A stretch of DNA of 64,000 bases from Candidatus Woesearchaeota archaeon (GTDB lineage: Archaea; Nanobdellota; Nanobdellia; Woesearchaeales; ARS49), in contig QZIM01000002.1 of assembly GCA_003599055.1 (NCBI GenBank), positions 517-64,516 on the forward strand, written 5' to 3'. Every line of letters starts with the position of its first letter. Within the stretch, counting starts at the first letter, position 1. A program made the translations under genes and the position numbers. Positions 1,851-56,276 of this stretch are shown piece by piece. The notes below the pieces were generated by a model. It ran no database searches and was not told where the DNA came from. It saw only the letters and a list, made by a program, of their open reading frames with translations.

Positions 1851-2030
1851 AGAGAAAAGTTGTTTCTCTATTCGCGCAGCGAATAGTTTGTCGTTTGTTT
1901 CTCGAGTCGCGGCAATCTGAGATTGCCGAGAACTCGGAAATCTGCGGATTTCCGCGTCGGAGCTGAGGAGCGCTTTGATCGAATCACGAAAATCAGAGAT
2001 TTTCGGGAACCAGAAAACCTCCGGTTTTCT
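1851..2030. repeat. array of seven short perfect hairpins with related stems
   Basis: Read directly. AGAGAAA-5-TTTCTCT (1851-1869). ATTCGC-GCA-GCGAAT (1870-1884). CGGCAATC-TGA-GATTGCCG (1910-1928). CGGAAATC-TGCG-GATTTCCG (1935-1954). Weak TGAT-CGA-ATCA (about 1976-1986). CGAAAATC-AGA-GATTTTCG (1987-2005). AGAAAACC-TCC-GGTTTTCT (2012-2030). Confidence 0.8.
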
Positions 2031-2253
2031 TGTCTTTAGATAAAGTTCGTTGTGCCAGCCGAGCGTGGAAGCGTACAAGGTTGAAGCGAGGAAGTTTTTG
2101 TCGCGGTAGATGATTCCCTGTCTTGTTTTTCTTAAAAAAGTTTAAATACTTTCGTGCATTTTTTTGTGAAAGAATCATAAAAGGGGGAGTATAATACGTG
2201 ATTGTGCTAAACTGCATAAATCAAGGTGCCTAATTGAGCAATAAAGAGTGTGA

Positions 2254-7390: not shown

Positions 7391-10300
7391 ATGTCAAAAA
7401 GAGGGGGACTTACGTTTACGGCGCTTGCTATCTTGTTAGTTGTTACTGTTTCATTGAGTGTCGTTTCGCAGGAGTCAGGTTCTGAGGCGAATGTTTCCGA
7501 GCTGAATTTTTTTGATTTGAATAGTTCTGATGCGGTTGTTTCGCAGGCAAATGAGTCGCTTGCGGGAAGTGATGCGCCGGTCGGTTCAGATGAGGGGAGC
7601 ACAACTGTTGCGGATAGCGCAAGAGCAGGTGCTGCTGAGGCGAATGGTTCTTCAGGGCTGATTGAGCCGCAGCCCCGCACGCAACATCTGGTCCGCAAAG
7701 TTGTAAGTGATGCGCGTATTCACGCGGGCGCGGTTGCTCAGGTGCAAAGTGAGGGCAGCGCGAGCGTCATTGTTCTTCTCGCCGATGTTGACTCGGGACG
7801 GTCGGCAAGTGCGCAGGGTGTTGCCGTATCGCGTGAGCGTGCAGGGCGTGCAAAGCAGGCGTTCAGGGAGTCACTTGCGGGGAAAGGTATTTCTGATGCA
7901 AGTGTGAGTATCGAGCAGGAGTTGTACACGGTTGGAGCGGTGGCAATGACGGTTGATGAGGCAGGGCTTGCTGCCTTGCAGGAAAACCCGCTTGTTGCGC
8001 GCGTGTTGCCGAACGGGAAGCGCTCAATTAGCCGCGGGACAATCAGTGATGCGGGCATTTCGCTCAATGAGAGTGCGCCCGTGATAAATTCGGATGACGT
8101 TGCGAATTTGACGGTGAACGGCAGCAACCTGACCGGGCACGGCGAGATTGTTTGCGTGATTGATACGGGGATTGACACGTCACACCTCTTGTTTGGTCCG
8201 GTAATTGAGGCAAGTAATATTGTTGGCGGCATTTTCGGAGGGTATGATTTTGTGAATAATGATACAAACGCAAGTGACGACAATAATCACGGGACGCACG
8301 TGTCGGGAATTGCCGTTGGGAATTTCAGCCCGTATTTTGGGACGGCAAGGAACGCGCAGGTGGTTCCGGTGAAGGTGTGTGATGCGGCAGGGAGTTGTCC
8401 TGATTTTGCGATTTTGGCAGGGGTTGACTATTGCAACAATAATATTTCGGGTGTGACGGTGATTTCCGGCTCGCTCGGCGGCGGCGCGCCGCTCAACAGT
8501 TCGACGTGTTCTGGCGACCCGCTGTTTGCTTCGCTTGAAGTGGTGCTTAATGAGTCGCTGAATAACGGTATCATTCCCGTGTTTGCGAGCGGGAATAACG
8601 GGTGCGGTGCGGGGTGTACGACGGGGGTTGACTATCCTGCCTGTTCGCCGCAGGTTATCAGCGTGGGTTCGACGACAAAGGCGGATGCAATCAGCACGTT
8701 CACGGACCGCGGCGGCGACCGGTTTGACATTTACGCGCCCGGGCAGAGTATCACCAGCAGTGTTCCGACATTTAATGCAATCCAGTCGGTGAGCGGGACA
8801 AGCCAGGCAACGCCGCACGTGTCAGGCGTGATTGCGGTCTTGCAGCAAAACGAGCGCTTGCAGGGCAGGGCGCGGCTCAATCTCACAACAATTCGCCGTT
8901 TGCTGCAGGAGACGGGTGTTCCGATTCCGTCCAATGACTCGCGTGTTGATGTGTTGCACGCGATTGCGCGGCTGAACGCGAATTTTTCGCTCAACCAGAC
9001 GGCAAACCTGGTGCGTGATGTCGCGAGCAATTCTTCGATTCAGTTTTATTCCGCGTCTGACTTGGGGCAGGTGCTCGGATGTGTTGAAGTGCGGGAGAAT
9101 TTCGCGGGCGTGAACAGTACGGATTGCCCGCAGTATAACAAGTCTGCGCACGTTGTGCTTGGCGGCGTTACAAATCCTGCGCAGCCATATGTTGACGGCG
9201 CGCCGTGCCCGTTAACGGTGTGCCAGAACGTGACGCTGACAAGCAAAGGGCTTGAGATGGACGTGACGGGCTTTAGTAATTTCACAAGCGTTCCCGGCTG
9301 CGGGATTATGATTAACGAGAGCGCGAGCCTGAATCAGTCAATCAACGCGACCGCAACGTGCATCACGTTCGGCGCGGACAATATTGAGCTTGACTGTAAT
9401 GGTTTCACGATTGGGTACGCGAATGAGTCGCTTGGTTATGGCATCAACGCGACGGGGCGGAAGAATATCACGATTCGCAATTGCGTGGTGAACCAGTCAA
9501 GCCCGATTAATAATGCGCACGCGATTTTCCTGAGCGGGACCAATAACAGTGTTATAACAAATGCGAGCCTGAATGTCACGCAGTCGCCCGGCCAGGCGGT
9601 ATATATTGAGGGGAGTGAAGAGGTTGTTGTTGGGCAGAGCAGGTTTGGAAGTGCGGCGCAGGGGAATGGGGTTTATGTGACCGGCTCGGAAAATGTCACG
9701 GTTCGGGATAATAATTTTATCAGTGCGGGACAGGCAATTGGTTTTGACTCATCGGTGCGCCTTGTTGCGGTGAATAATTCAGCGTCAATTATCGGAAACT
9801 CGATTGCGCTGGCTGCAGGAGGGCTAAATCAGGGCAGTCTGATTGAGAACAATTCAATTTCAGGCAACCAGAACCGTGCATTATTTTTCAGCGGCGGTAA
9901 TGCTGTGGCGAGAAATAATGTTCTTGTCTCACAAAGTTTGGGAGATGCGGTTGAGCTAAATGAGGTTGACGGAAATGTGACGTTGGAGCATAACGTGATT
10001 TATGCGCAAGGAACCGGCCAGGCGCTCTACCTGCGGGACGCAAACAGTTCACGATTTGTGAATAATACGGTGCGCGGTCCGGGCGGCGGCGCACTCTTAA
10101 TTATTGATGGGGCACTTAATGTGTTTGAAAACAGCAGCTTTGCTACTGACTCAGGAACGGCCACGGTGTATTTTTCAACTCTTGCGGGGTCGGTCGTAAA
10201 CAACACGTTCACAAACATCACGCTTGAGTCAAATGGTTCCTATATTCGGTCGGATGCGGCTGGTGCGGGGAACAACTTCACCGCGGCCCGTTTCTTTAAT

Positions 10301-14486: not shown

Positions 14487-14494
14487 TTTAAATA
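14487..14494 (+). promoter_or_regulatory. TATA-like box (TTTAAATA) upstream of the tRNA-Leu leader
   Basis: Matches the TTTAAA(T/A)A element seen about 25-30 nt upstream of many genes in this window. It lies about 30 nt upstream of 14521, not of the tRNA body at 14616. Confidence 0.45.
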
Positions 14495-14520
14495 GTGCCC
14501 GTGGGGATTCGCATTCTTGC

Positions 14521-14569
14521 GCGGCGGTACCGATTGCGGCAATTGCGATTGCCGGACGCGTTACCGCCG
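14521..14569 (+). other. leader hairpin containing an exact 13-nt copy of the tRNA-Leu 5' end
   Basis: GCGGCGGTACCGA at 14521-14533 is identical to 14616-14628. CGGCGGTA (14522-14529) pairs with TACCGCCG (14562-14569). Inner hairpin CGGCAAT-TGCG-ATTGCCG. Confidence 0.7.
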
Positions 14570-14615: not shown

Positions 14616-14712
14616 GCGGCGGTACCGAAGCGGTTAAACGGGCTGGCTTCAGGACATTTGTGAAAAAGCCAGTTGCTTAGTGCATGCGCAGGTTCGAATC
14701 CTGCCCGCCGCA
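14616..14712 (+). tRNA. tRNA-Leu(CAG), class II, 13-nt intron at 37/38
   Basis: Acceptor GCGGCGG/CCGCCGC. Anticodon stem CTGGC/GCCAG encloses TTCAGG-[ACATTTGTGAAAA]-A. Long variable arm. T arm GCAGG-TTCGAAT-CCTGC. Discriminator A. Confidence 0.85.
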
Positions 14713-14758: not shown

Positions 14759-14863
14759 GCGGGCAGGATTCGAACGTTCCAAAAATCCACTCGCTTTGCT
14801 CGTGAATTTTCGGAAACTTTTCCTTCGCTGCGCTTCGGAAAAGTAATCCTGCCCGCCGCATAT
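14759..14863 (+). repeat. tRNA-Leu-derived inverted-repeat element 1
   Basis: 14759-14775 is the reverse complement of tRNA 14692-14708 (17/17). 14845-14863 equals tRNA 14697-14715 (19/19, including 3 trailer nt). A 12-bp closing stem (14759-14770 with 14845-14856) surrounds two inner hairpins: 14777-14815 (imperfect) and ACTTTTCC-13-GGAAAAGT (14816-14844). Confidence 0.85.
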
Positions 14864-14911
14864 CGCTTTGAGTTGTAAGCACGGAGTGCAGTTTTTTTAC
14901 GGTGCGCTAAG

Positions 14912-14958
14912 GCGGGAAGGTAGAAAAATCTCGGATTTTTCGTATCTGCCCGCCGCAT
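14912..14958 (+). repeat. tRNA-Leu-derived inverted-repeat element 2
   Basis: CTGCCCGCCGCAT at 14946-14958 is an exact copy of the tRNA 3' end. GCGGGAAGGTA (14912-14922) pairs imperfectly with GTATCTGCCCGC (14942-14953). Inner hairpin GAAAAATC-TCG-GATTTTTC (14923-14941). Confidence 0.75.
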
Positions 14959-37973: not shown

Positions 37974-38019
37974 TTTCATTTACCAAACCTTTTTATCCTT
38001 CGTTCGCTTTCCTTTCCGT

Positions 38020-53726: not shown

Positions 53727-53822
53727 GCGGCCGTGGCACAACCCGGTACTGCGTCGGTCTCGAACCTCGTCGTGAGAACCGATTTCCGCAAGGATATCCC
53801 GGTTCAAATCCGGGCGGCCGCG
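53727..53822 (+). tRNA. tRNA-Ser(CGA), class II, 12-nt intron at 37/38
   Basis: Acceptor GCGGCCG/CGGCCGC with discriminator G. Anticodon stem TCGGT/ACCGA encloses CTCGAA-[CCTCGTCGTGAG]-A. Variable arm TCC-GCAA-GGA. T arm CCCGG-TTCAAAT-CCGGG. TATA-like CTTTAAAAAG sits about 30 nt upstream. Confidence 0.85.
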
Positions 53823-53859
53823 TACGGCAAGGACAGAGTCCTTTTCATAAAAATAACAA

Positions 53860-53935
53860 GGATTTGAACCGGTGTTGGAAAATCGCTGATGAAGTCAGTG
53901 ATTTTCCGTATCCGGTTCAAATCCGGGCGGCCGCG
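53860..53935 (+). repeat. tRNA-Ser-derived inverted-repeat element
   Basis: 53912-53935 equals tRNA 53799-53822 (24/24). GGATTTGAACCGG (53860-53872) is the reverse complement of 53912-53924. The inner 13-bp hairpin is GGAAAATCGCTGA-TGAAG-TCAGTGATTTTCC (53877-53907). Confidence 0.85.
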
Positions 53936-53979
53936 TTTCAGTCATTACACATTTAAAGGGCGGCCTGTTCAAGAGAACT

Positions 53980-54528
53980 ATGCGTTCGTATCTCTGTGCT
54001 GCATTTTTGCTTGCCGGCTGTGCTGCTCCGCAAATGAGGGCAGTTCGTCCGCCGGAGGCATCAGTGGATTCTGCGCTTGAGCAATCGCTCAGCGCGTCTT
54101 TTCCCGAAAGGAACGTGCGTGTGCAGTCTGCAGACGGATTGGAAGGCTCGGTTGATGCGTACATTGCCGCGCTGGACGGGAACCGGGCGTCAAGTGAGTA
54201 CGGAAGAACCGCTCTTTACCCGCTCGGCCATCGGATTCTCATTGACGCTCAGCGCCAAGTGGTGCGGGAAGAGTATGTGCCAAAATTCGTCCGTGCGCTG
54301 GAGTTTCACGCATTTTCGTGCACGATTGACGGCTATTTTCAGGAGACGCACGATGCGTACGCTGCGGCAATTGCCCTGCAGCCAAGCCCGCGTCTTTATG
54401 CGAAACGGGCGTGGGTTGCAAAATATCTTGGGCGGGCGGAATCTGCGGTGCAGGACCGCCTGATGGCGGATAATGCCTGGCCTGAGGTACGGACGGTGCA
54501 GCGTTGGCGGGATGAGCGCAATGATTGA
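53980..54528 (+). CDS. lipoprotein, unknown function
   Basis: Lipobox LLAGC. ATG lies about 25 nt downstream of ATTTAAAG. Confidence 0.5.
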   Translation: MRSYLCAAFLLAGCAAPQMRAVRPPEASVDSALEQSLSASFPERNVRVQSADGLEGSVDAYIAALDGNRASSEYGRTALYPLGHRILIDAQRQVVREEYVPKFVRALEFHAFSCTIDGYFQETHDAYAAAIALQPSPRLYAKRAWVAKYLGRAESAVQDRLMADNAWPEVRTVQRWRDERND

Positions 54529-55048
54529 GGTTGAGCTCCGCAGTTTTGTTTCAGAGGATGAATTTGCGCGCCTTCTTTCATTCTTTGCTGCAAGCGCAAA
54601 AGCGCGTGGTGATGACGAGCAGGTCACGTTTTATTTCAATGGCCCGGAAGACCTGCGTATCCAGCAGAATAAAACGCACAGCAAGGTCTGGCTGAAAAAG
54701 GGAAAATTGCACGATGACGCGCGGGAAGAGATTGAAATTAAGTGCGCAAAAGATGACTTCGCGCGCTTAGAATCGCTCTTTCTGGCACTGGGCTATACGG
54801 TCAATATCAAGTGGTTCCGGAAAAGAAAATCGTTCGACTGGAACGGCATCACGGTAACGCTTGATGACACCAAAGGGTACGGAAAGATTCTCGAGCTTGA
54901 ACTGCTCACAACTGAGGCGCAAAAAGATGCCGCGCTCAGGCGTCTGAAGGAATGTTTCAATGAGTTAAGAATTGCGGTTACGCCAAAAGAGGAGTTTGAG
55001 AGGAAGTTTGCGTTCTATAAGGAGAACTGGAAGTCGCTTATCTCTTGA
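54521..55048 (+). CDS. CYTH-domain protein (CyaB-like class IV adenylyl cyclase / triphosphatase)
   Basis: MIEVELR (ExExK-like start), a roughly 175-aa size, and alternating charged beta-strand pattern (EEIEIK, LELELL). Confidence 0.7.
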   Translation: MIEVELRSFVSEDEFARLLSFFAASAKARGDDEQVTFYFNGPEDLRIQQNKTHSKVWLKKGKLHDDAREEIEIKCAKDDFARLESLFLALGYTVNIKWFRKRKSFDWNGITVTLDDTKGYGKILELELLTTEAQKDAALRRLKECFNELRIAVTPKEEFERKFAFYKENWKSLIS

Positions 55049-56276
55049 TGCGGTCAGTCTGGAAGTATTTGCTCCAGGCGTTGTTGAGGGCAAACGAGAT
55101 TGGTTTTCCAAGGACGCGCTGCACGGATTGGGGGATGAGGAATGTGCGGTTCATTGAAAGGTACGGGGTGTATTCATTTTTCTTCGATGTGAGCGCGCGT
55201 TCGGCTGCCTGAATTCCGCTTGCGGCAGCCCACGGGAGCCCGACGCAGCCGGCAACAAAGGTGACGTGGGGTGCGTACGGGGCGGTGTCAACGATAGGGA
55301 GGAGGTCTTTGGTGGTGTCAATATGGCCGGGCCAGTATTGGATGAATTCAATGTGGTTGAGGACAGGGTGTTTTTTGCGCAGGTCGTTAATGACGTGCTG
55401 GATGACGCGCGAAGAGTGAACGTAGAACGGGGTGAAGGTGGTGAGGGCAGAGCCGCCGCCGACAAGAAGCCGTTTGTCGCGGGTGATGCGGTAGTAGGTG
55501 TAGACAAGTTTTGAGTCCCAGCACAGGACATCTTTTGTGGGGAAAATTGCCTTGATGTCGCTTCGCTCAAGCGGTTCGCTGACGGAGAGGAAGGTTTGTG
55601 CGTGGTAGATTTTGTGGGAGATTAAGCTGAACGTTTTTTCAATTTTATCAATGCACATAATGATGTGGTTTGCGGTCACGCTTCCCGTGTGCGTTTTTGC
55701 AACGTGTCCCGTGATGTCTTCAACCTGTGAGCCTTCAAAGATGCGGACGCCCAAGGAAAGCAGGGCCCGTTTGATTCCCTGTGCGTAGAGGAGCGGGTTA
55801 ATGCTGTACGTGTCATCATAGTGTACTGCGGCGGTGTACGCGTCGCTGTTGCAGTATTTTTTGAGCGCGCTTCCGATGAGGAGTTCGCTGTGGAGCCCGC
55901 AGTGTGCGCGGGTGGCGTTTTCACGGGTGACTGCGTTCTTTCCGCTGCGCCCGATTCCAAGGAAAATGCTGTCCTGTTTTTGCAGGTCGCAGGAAATGCG
56001 GTATTTTTTGATGGCGCGGGTGATGTGCGCAATGCCGTCGGAGGCAAACGTCCAAAGGAGTGTCGCTCCGTGCGGCCCGAACCTGCGAAGGAGTTGTTCG
56101 AGTTCCAGTTCGCTGTCGGGCGTGAGGAATCCTGCGCTTTTGCCGGTGGAGCTTCCGCCGCAGATGTTTTTTTCAAGCAGGACGACGTCTTTTCCTGATT
56201 CGGCAAGGCGGAGTGCTGCGTGAAGGCCGGCGATTCCTCCGCCGACGACAAGGATGTCGCACCGGATGTTTTTCAT
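55038..56276 (-). CDS. FAD-dependent oxidoreductase (DAO family)
   Basis: ATG 56276. Dinucleotide fold DILVVGGGIAGLHAALRLAESGKDVVLLEK. Confidence 0.8.
   Translation of the reverse strand: MKNIRCDILVVGGGIAGLHAALRLAESGKDVVLLEKNICGGSSTGKSAGFLTPDSELELEQLLRRFGPHGATLLWTFASDGIAHITRAIKKYRISCDLQKQDSIFLGIGRSGKNAVTRENATRAHCGLHSELLIGSALKKYCNSDAYTAAVHYDDTYSINPLLYAQGIKRALLSLGVRIFEGSQVEDITGHVAKTHTGSVTANHIIMCIDKIEKTFSLISHKIYHAQTFLSVSEPLERSDIKAIFPTKDVLCWDSKLVYTYYRITRDKRLLVGGGSALTTFTPFYVHSSRVIQHVINDLRKKHPVLNHIEFIQYWPGHIDTTKDLLPIVDTAPYAPHVTFVAGCVGLPWAAASGIQAAERALTSKKNEYTPYLSMNRTFLIPQSVQRVLGKPISFALNNAWSKYFQTDRIKR

Follow-up and report, generated by a model that had tools for sequence, protein, structure and literature searches.

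A candidate miniature attachment-type scar at the 3′ end of a tRNA-Ser gene in Candidatus Woesearchaeota

Within a stretch of 64,000 nucleotides from a Candidatus Woesearchaeota archaeon (contig QZIM01000002.1, positions 517 to 64,516, of assembly GCA_003599055.1; the whole stretch is referred to as the window), the intact tRNA-Ser(CGA) gene is followed by an inverted copy of its T arm, a hairpin and a direct copy of its own 3′ end. With a probability of about 0.55, we consider this element, which adjoins the end of the tRNA gene, a non-autonomous unit or a miniature integration scar of the attachment (att) type. On the evidence, a product of insertion or recombination at the DNA level is indicated rather than an RNA gene. 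Units of this type are insertions or duplications. Their presence is polymorphic between relatives, a whole unit was copied and pasted between tRNA genes, and the unit copies are unconstrained in a close relative of the organism.

The tRNA-Ser element and its sister units

The tRNA-Ser gene is located on the forward strand, as are all of the parts and sister units described below. Rfam detected it at 53727-53822 with 43.5 bits, and all 96 positions were identical in the orthologous locus of the close relative (L002). Its anticodon CGA (53761-53763), an intron of approx. 12 nt (about 53765-53776) and a long variable arm were read from the sequence by eye. The T arm covers 53798-53814 and the 3′ acceptor strand 53815-53821, followed by the discriminator G53822. 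Behind the gene lies a new trailer or 'body' at 53823-53859 (34/37 identical in L002), which contains a 4-bp mini-hairpin with a T-run, GGACagaGTCCTTTTC (53831-53846), and an AT-rich box, ATAAAAATAA (53847-53856). The inverted T-arm copy GGATTTGAACCGG at 53860-53872 is the reverse complement of 53799-53811 in 13 of 13 positions, as a preliminary description of the locus had reported. Next to it, between the flanks TGTT and GTAT, an inner A/T-rich hairpin (GGAAAATCGCTGA-tgaag-TCAGTGATTTTCC) occupies 53877-53907 with arms at 53877-53889 and 53895-53907 and T-runs on both strands. The 13 pairs described for this hairpin were found, but one of them is G·T and the stem is thus not perfect, as it had seemed. 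The last part is the displaced direct copy at 53912-53936, comprising T arm, 3′ acceptor strand, discriminator and one extra base. It equals 53799-53823 in 25 of 25 positions at an offset of 113 nt and is one base longer than the 24/24 copy stated before. A perfect 25-nt repeat at this distance is not a matter of chance (about 4^-25 per position). The direct repeats are separated by 88 bp, and the duplication pushes the old gene end 113 bp downstream.

Together, positions 53860-53924 form an imperfect palindrome of 65 nt with 30-nt arms that are 83% complementary. Folded as RNA, it reached -47 kcal/mol (z = -7.5). A reading of this palindrome as a bulge-helix-bulge motif or intron was ruled out by its 3x3 internal loop. 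Behind the distal copy follow TTTCAGTCA, probably the ancestral tRNA-Ser trailer judging by its sequence, and then the TTTAAA box (53951-53956) of the next gene with its ATG at 53980. No open reading frame (ORF) is present between the repeats. With the families of Rfam 15, only the tRNA itself gave a match, and a scan for bacterial promoters and terminators, which is unsuited to archaea, returned nothing. No other copies of the Ser body were found in ∼150 kb of this organism and its relatives. ARAGORN without intron search missed both tRNA-Ser and tRNA-Leu because both carry short introns in the anticodon loop. The junctions of the Ser element were reproduced in two independent Logan assemblies (L001, L002) and are therefore no assembly artefact. 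For the 182-aa ORF downstream, only one near-identical homologue was found, and its contig, L001, breaks inside the hairpin.

The GAAAATC..GATTTTC hairpin was rejected as a signature of the element. It recurs in ordinary intergenic DNA (window 1937-2040, L206, L215) and is therefore probably a generic T-run hairpin. Intergenic clusters of GAAAATC-N3-15-GATTTTC and of CAGAAAACC-N-GGTTTTCTTG hairpins were observed in the window (1900-2045), in L206 (140-156) and in L215 (7751-7770); from their sequence, these A/T-rich hairpins are probably bidirectional T-run terminators of this lineage.

Rfam detected three tRNAs in the window, namely, tRNA-Leu (14616-14712), tRNA-Arg (37837-37908) and tRNA-Ser, and units were found at each of them. 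The parallel at tRNA-Leu that had been pointed out beforehand is real and richer than stated, with two downstream units and an upstream mirror unit. The matching of each element to its host tRNA was likewise supported: the Ser element derives from the T arm and acceptor strand of tRNA-Ser and the Leu elements likewise from tRNA-Leu. The latter gene is intact, contains an intron and was scored with 49.8 bits (97/97 identical in the relative's locus L201). Its first downstream unit (14759-14863) is composed of a 17-nt inverted copy (14759-14775), two hairpins and a direct copy (14845-14863, 19/19) of the tRNA 3′ end plus three trailer bases. In the orthologous unit in L201, the copies carry one indel and two substitutions. 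The second, outer unit (14911-14958) is shorter and consists of a degenerate inverted copy GGCGGGAAG, the hairpin GAAAAATCtcgGATTTTTC, GTAT and the 13-nt direct copy CTGCCCGCCGCAT (14946-14958, 13/13), with hairpin and partial copy spanning 14923-14958.

Upstream of tRNA-Leu, a 5′ unit at 14520-14569 is built as the mirror image of the 3′ units from a displaced 5′ fragment, a hairpin and an imperfect inverted copy, and it is orthologous in L201. The fragment (14520-14533) repeats nt 1 to 13 of the tRNA together with the base before them and sits within a palindrome (14522-14569). It is this fragment, and not the mature tRNA, that is preceded by the box TTTAAATA (14489-14496) at a distance of ∼25-32 nt. 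The tRNA-Leu transcript therefore probably has a 95-nt leader, which, to judge from the sequence, probably holds a palindrome-locked copy of the tRNA's own first 13 nt.

The unit of tRNA-Arg (37910-37981, with the tRNA at 37836-37909) is a 65-nt insertion consisting of a new trailer or spacer and a copy of the 3′ part of the tRNA. This distal copy of 34 nt (37948-37981) is 91% identical (31/34); its stretch 37948-37976, which copies the 3′ part of the tRNA, has one mismatch and is followed by the ancestral trailer TTTCATTT. An inverted copy is absent from the Arg unit. At all three tRNAs, the direct copies stop at the gene end plus one to three bases, while their 5′ limit varies (13-29 nt). 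The Ser, second Leu and Arg units of this genome have the motif TTTYCGTRTC at the junction in common; it was not found in the units of other lineages.

A further tRNA gene of the window, tRNA-Asp(GUC) at 32001-32118, is irregular and was scored below the threshold with 25.8 bits. Its variable region contains an additional hairpin (TCCCgtaaGGGA), and ∼33 nt including a degenerate T-arm-like stretch (GGGGTGAATCTCCC) separate its T loop from the 3′ strand of the T-stem. Judged by sequence, this could be due to non-canonical introns or to another internal duplication. The GC skew was positive in all 2-kb bins of the window (1-64000), with a cumulative value of +4.4.

Presence, absence and decay of the units in relatives

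The close relative is represented by the Logan assembly ERR15087778 (kinase 87% identical) with the orthologous loci L002 (Ser), L201 (Leu) and L202 (Arg). The Ser and Leu tRNAs are identical to those of the window in 193 of 193 positions. The Ser and Leu units are also present in the relative, with 77-96% identity, the copies themselves being 77-92% identical. Approximately 15 changes break the identity of the copies with the tRNA; all of them are located in the close relative's copies and none is compensatory. The inverted T-arm copy in L002 has one uncompensated substitution, and the Ser unit of this locus contains extra segments of 58 and 70 nt compared to the window. The check by folding and homologues suggested in the preliminary description thus gave a stable fold, yet no covariation in the relative, and the decayed copies, together with these indels, speak against the independently transcribed RNA that it had thought conceivable and against a minihelix mimic. 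Homologous elements at tRNA-Ser loci of relatives, which it had asked for, do exist in L002 and in the metagenome loci described below.

At tRNA-Arg, the relative has an empty site. In L202, TTTCATTT directly follows the tRNA, whereas it stands behind the distal copy in the window. The units are therefore insertions and the sequence past the distal copy is the ancestral trailer. It also follows from this filled and empty pair that events of this kind have occurred after the two lineages split. An unrelated segment of ∼76 nt was noticed in L202 (reverse strand, about 8410-8560) just past the shared trailer.

A distant Woesearchaeon (GCA_016203305.1, locus L003) has an intron-less tRNA-Ser(CGA) without any unit, and a convergent gene ends 5 nt past this tRNA. 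The trailer resembles the sequence behind the distal copy of the window. As a separate difference, the close relative (L002, 9440-9480) is devoid of ∼2 kb of the window (54054-56043) that comprise the CYTH gene together with the greater part of both the 182-aa ORF and a flavin adenine dinucleotide (FAD) oxidoreductase gene. Since the CYTH gene is kept in L003, this difference is a deletion in the close relative.

One metagenome scan with the 22-mer of the tRNA-Ser 3′ end yielded 14 Woesearchaeota-like tRNA-Ser loci (L203-L216). A downstream direct copy of 14-16 nt was found in six of them, preceded in five of the six by an inverted T-loop copy of 11-12 nt, and eight loci had no 3′ copy. Displaced 5′ fragments were present upstream in 4/14 loci, in one of these as two tandem units. 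Four complete loci lacked any unit, and a fifth unit-less locus, L210, is truncated. The inserts are unrelated in sequence between lineages. Inverted and direct pieces overlap by only 5-6 nt in L205, L212 and L215, and in L208 the inverted piece directly abuts the direct copy. The orthologous loci L206 and L207 share promoter and upstream gene, yet differ in the insert between 5′ fragment and tRNA; the displaced fragment of L206 extends to the anticodon loop and is broken by a hairpin-rich insert of 49 nt.

The movement of a complete unit is evident from L205 (tRNA-Ser UGA) and L211/L214 (tRNA-Ser CGA). They carry one 3′ unit with 100% identity, including the 14-nt trailer, and the identity stops exactly after the distal copy, whereas the introns are different and the flanks unrelated. 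The whole unit was therefore copied and pasted between genes that have a common 3′ end.

It was also observed that all five complete intron-containing tRNA-Ser genes (window, L205, L208, L211, L214) carry a 3′ unit, compared to two of nine intron-less ones. In L210, whose 5′ end was not located, an intron-like insert is present, and the 166 nt that could be examined contain no unit. In this small sample of phylogenetically non-independent loci, the sequences hint at a link between introns and end insertions.

The same layout in other lineages, and comparable known systems

One genome per GTDB species was scanned with the pattern GGATTYGAACC-N(10-40)-GGTTCRAATCC, and at least 120 matches were obtained. 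Those listed were mostly from Halobacteria, and the others included a Nanoarchaeota metagenome-assembled genome, Saccharibacteria, Alphaproteobacteria and Acidimicrobiia. In at least ∼80 loci, a tRNA gene precedes the palindrome, mostly by 30-80 nt, and the T arm of that very gene is what the palindrome reproduces. Among the matches listed, the direct arm usually extends as far as the gene end. The listed loci contain 25 other tRNA genes, of which ten had a direct 3′ copy (≥12 nt, within 400 nt) and eight an inverted one; approx. 4e-4 such copies per gene are expected by chance, and the sample of 25 genes is biased to unit-bearing genomes.

Conserved families of centres, common to different tRNAs and genera, were found in haloarchaea. 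A purine-rich centre of 36-39 nt (e.g. AGGGAGTGAAGCGAACGAAGTGAGCGGAACGACTGA) lies between the T-arm arms behind many different tRNA genes (L014 827-884; L057 1015-1072; L048 4057-4266; L088; L112). At tRNA-Asp of haloarchaea, the palindrome and the purine-rich 36-nt centre are kept between genera, and the 'body' beside the tRNA is not. This sequence conservation would suggest a specific function of the centre at the protein or RNA level. Hairpins with GCGNAGC-type loops were seen beside the haloarchaeal centres. Haloarchaea also possess tandem arrays of units, in which the outer copies are more degenerate, in line with an entry of every new unit at the intact gene. In L015 and L053, near-perfect long palindromes are centred on the tRNA anticodon loop; these are probably fold-back artefacts of assembly or amplification.

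When IMG/VR was scanned in the same way, 76 contigs were obtained, nearly all of them from one Bifidobacterium-type prophage family. In these prophages, the 3′ half of a tRNA is present in inverted and in direct orientation with 7 nt in between, at a distance of 57-77 nt from a small tyrosine integrase gene (PF00589). The perfect palindrome of ∼58 nt stands beside an integrase gene of 276-279 aa (L127 7884-8837; L130 11557-12514; L016 1-619), which means that integrase-linked attachment regions can be of mirror-image design. The module (L127 and L130 in IMG/VR, genome loci L016 and L017) resembles the present units in its order of inverted tRNA 3′ copy, loop and direct copy up to the 3′ end. 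It differs by its 25-nt arms that reach the anticodon stem, its 7-nt loop, the accompanying integrase and whole phage, and its bacterial host.

Among the known systems closest in design are the attL/attR duplications of tRNA genes by archaeal and bacterial tyrosine-integrase elements, i.e. SSV-, pNOB8-, SNJ2- and pTN3-type elements and genomic islands (PMC8371274, PMC9897764). Partial tRNA genes that arise from such integration are well known, with 9-23 kb between the copies (PMC9897764). As in these cases, the direct repeat at hand is the end of the tRNA gene, with the intact gene on one side and the fragment on the other, and the preference for the 3′ end, the variable 5′ limits, the occasional use of the 5′ half and the tandem accretion are shared as well. 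In these respects, the direct copies behave like the attL/attR duplications of integrative elements. However, the known cases enclose 9-23 kb or more and an integrase, compared to 36-130 bp without any gene in the present units, in which the displaced fragment is moreover preceded by a hairpin and by the tRNA end in inverted orientation.

Cis-mobilizable elements (CIMEs) are flanked by att sites, lack recombination genes, are moved in trans and form accretion arrays. The present units are similar in being non-autonomous, bounded by attL- and attR-like repeats and arranged in tandem at one tRNA gene. CIMEs are kilobase-sized, though, and mobilisation of the present units is putative. Folded single-stranded recombination sites are exemplified by the attC sites of integrons and the attP(+) hairpin of CTXphi, which are processed by IntI or Xer recombinases. 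The Ser element of the window has an imperfect palindrome of this kind, whose 13-bp stem reproduces the core of the T arm. One may speculate by analogy that a folded single-strand site would give exactly the observed order, since this mechanism predicts target core, body, inverted core, loop, direct core and host flank. On the other hand, no cassette ORFs were seen in the units and the stem overlap amounts to just 5-6 bp in L205, L212 and L215.

The distal repeats of E. coli tyrT are reportedly 178-bp units containing the last 19 nt of tRNA-Tyr. They likewise form short tandem units behind a tRNA gene that each end in a copy of the tRNA 3′ end; they are bacterial and 178 bp long, and are not known to include an inverted T-arm copy. 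Two further classes of mobile DNA were tried and rejected. A miniature inverted-repeat transposable element does not match the lack of terminal inverted repeats (best 6 of 16), the duplications of 13-29 nt and the lack of spacer copies in ∼150 kb. A casposon, which would duplicate 14-15 bp of its target at a tRNA 3′ end, is at odds with the lack of any genes including Cas1, the missing terminal inverted repeats and the variable length of the duplication.

The integration-scar reading and its rivals

In the mechanism proposed for the scar, a short DNA would recombine into the 3′ end of the tRNA-Ser gene in the way in which integrative elements use tRNA genes for attachment. The incoming DNA would substitute its own sequence for the last ∼25 bases of the tRNA gene, the proximal copy presumably being the imported one, and would also bring the T-run trailer (53823-53859), the inverted T-arm copy and the hairpin. 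The old 3′ end would thereby be displaced by 113 bp together with the trailer that had always followed it. Repeated events would lead to nested or tandem units as they occur at tRNA-Leu. A site-specific recombinase, probably of the tyrosine type, is the likely catalyst, and the T-run hairpin may serve as terminator. The inverted copy could have arrived as a component of the attachment region, by analogy with the Bifidobacterium-type module, and/or could persist by locking the displaced fragment into a hairpin. Given the fact that the unit contains no genes, it would be a non-autonomous miniature element moved in trans or the remnant of a larger element. The preliminary description had named one end of a larger element, lost from the assembly, as a possible refutation. 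Insertion or recombination indeed appears to be the origin, but nothing is missing and the unit measures only 113 bp.

A duplication of the att type is supported by the direct repeats of the tRNA end at Ser, Leu and Arg and by the empty Arg site of L202. Also in its favour are the element-free L003 with its similar trailer, the patchy occurrence of units among the 14 metagenomic tRNA-Ser loci, the identical unit of L205 and L211/L214, the decayed copies of the close relative, the haloarchaeal arrays and the integrase-linked module of the prophages. Several observations weigh against it. Neither an integrase nor any other gene lies between the repeats, and a tyrosine recombinase was not detected in the window or the DPANN loci by phmmer with two phage integrases, a search of low sensitivity. 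The 24-mer core of tRNA-Ser is absent from IMG/VR and the haloarchaeal unit from phage and plasmid collections. Inserts of 36-130 bp are too small for conventional circular double-stranded substrates, and random erosion of kilobase-sized elements would not predict a size range this narrow. Outside their tRNA-derived parts, the units of the window are unique and form no repeat family. Moreover, a standard recombinase core would call for a shorter and less variable distance between inverted and direct arm than the 10-56 nt observed, and the inverted copy is therefore not really explained by the scar.

The main rival is local break repair or template switching at fragile tRNA genes, with snap-back synthesis and filler DNA but without any mobile element or recombinase. 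tRNA genes are fragile due to heavy transcription and dyad symmetry. Fillers that are unique in this genome and unrelated between lineages, variable copy boundaries, damage at both ends of tRNA genes and the occurrence of the layout in both domains would all suit such repair. The same applies to the inverted copies that are longer than or offset from the direct one (Leu unit 1, L205, L212, L215), to the abutting pieces of L208 and to the failure of the low-sensitivity phmmer search to find a recombinase. We nevertheless regard repair as unlikely, since it does not account well for the unit that two different tRNA-Ser genes share with 100% identity up to, and not beyond, the distal copy, or for a haloarchaeal centre that is conserved across tRNAs and genera and occurs in arrays. 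The outer limit of the copies, moreover, always coincides with the gene end, and the module belongs to integrase-linked attachment regions of prophages. The conservation of the haloarchaeal palindrome and centre, which exceeds that of the adjoining 'body', would also fit a selected cis-acting module, in which the hairpin terminates read-through and the inverted copy sequesters the displaced fragment to protect tRNA maturation. In agreement with this, the inverted copy always stands beside the displaced fragment and never beside the functional gene, at 3′ and 5′ ends alike, and T-runs are found in the 3′ units, while the hairpin of the tRNA-Leu 5′ unit is free of a T-run, as read-through from the old promoter requires. 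A masking role of the inverted copy is plausible, but masking would be incomplete, as the predicted read-through fold pairs the 5′ strand of the tRNA with the distal acceptor copy. With copies that decay freely in the close relative, a unit that many relatives lack and a tRNA-Arg unit without inverted copy, selection for such a module is improbable.

Still further from the evidence is an independently transcribed RNA, which the preliminary description had called conceivable. It would consist of a hairpin leader and the 3′ part of the tRNA and would serve as a mimic for RNase Z or the CCA-adding enzyme or as a 3′ half for trans-splicing. We consider it very improbable. The AT-rich box on which the proposal was built is present (53847-53856), and the fold of the region is very stable. 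However, the box is unlike the local TTTAAA boxes found at ∼-32 to -23 in front of the Leu, Arg and Ser transcription units that Rfam detected, and a start ∼25 nt downstream of it would already lie within the hairpin. The distant relative and approximately half of the related loci lack the element; it shows neither covariation nor, apart from the tRNA itself, an Rfam match. The direct copy includes a trailer base (three at tRNA-Leu), which indicates that it was copied from DNA and not from a mature RNA module. Split tRNAs of DPANN archaea lend the proposal some background. The 3′-half genes of Nanoarchaeum and Caldivirga start at about position 37/38, possess a separate promoter as well as a leader that is complementary to the partner half, and replace the intact gene. 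The present element resembles them in its DPANN host and in having a 3′ tRNA fragment behind a structured leader. In contrast to them, its fragment starts in the T arm, and a 5′ acceptor partner was not found in a search confined to the window. Because the intact tRNA-Ser adjoins, no half-tRNA is needed. With this neighbouring gene and the misplaced box, a split-tRNA 3′-half gene was rejected, as was a C/D-box small RNA, whose boxes misfit by eye and for which Rfam gave no match.

Returning to the att-type scar, its unusual traits are the size (36-130 bp, no genes) and the inverted copy and hairpin in front of the displaced fragment. A description of this palindromic miniature form was not found in the searchable literature. 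On balance, the feature is probably best filed as a miniature palindromic variant of the attachment-site duplications at tRNA genes. A wider view, which is tentative and on present evidence doubtful, is that the units are an undescribed, gene-less class of mobile DNA of ∼60-150 bp that inserts at tRNA gene ends in both domains. Each unit would then bring a replacement tRNA end, its own trailer and a T-arm palindrome, and it would possibly move as a folded single strand with a recombinase borrowed from the host or another element. Such units would accumulate in arrays, and Halobacteria and DPANN archaea would be very rich in them.

The displaced copies of T arm and acceptor strand and the long palindromes are of practical relevance, as they mislead tRNA finders and interrupt assemblies, L001 with its end in the hairpin being a case in point. 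For the small DPANN genome studied here, they mean that tRNA genes were struck repeatedly at both ends, and disruption of this kind has reportedly been put forward as a source of tRNA introns and split tRNAs. Most interesting of all is how widespread the pattern is, above all in Halobacteria: the layout lies behind a large share of the sampled haloarchaeal tRNA genes and has a conserved centre there. If these were active miniature integrative units, they would constitute an overlooked and abundant class of mobile DNA and would offer a simple handle on recombination at tRNA sites in tractable haloarchaea.

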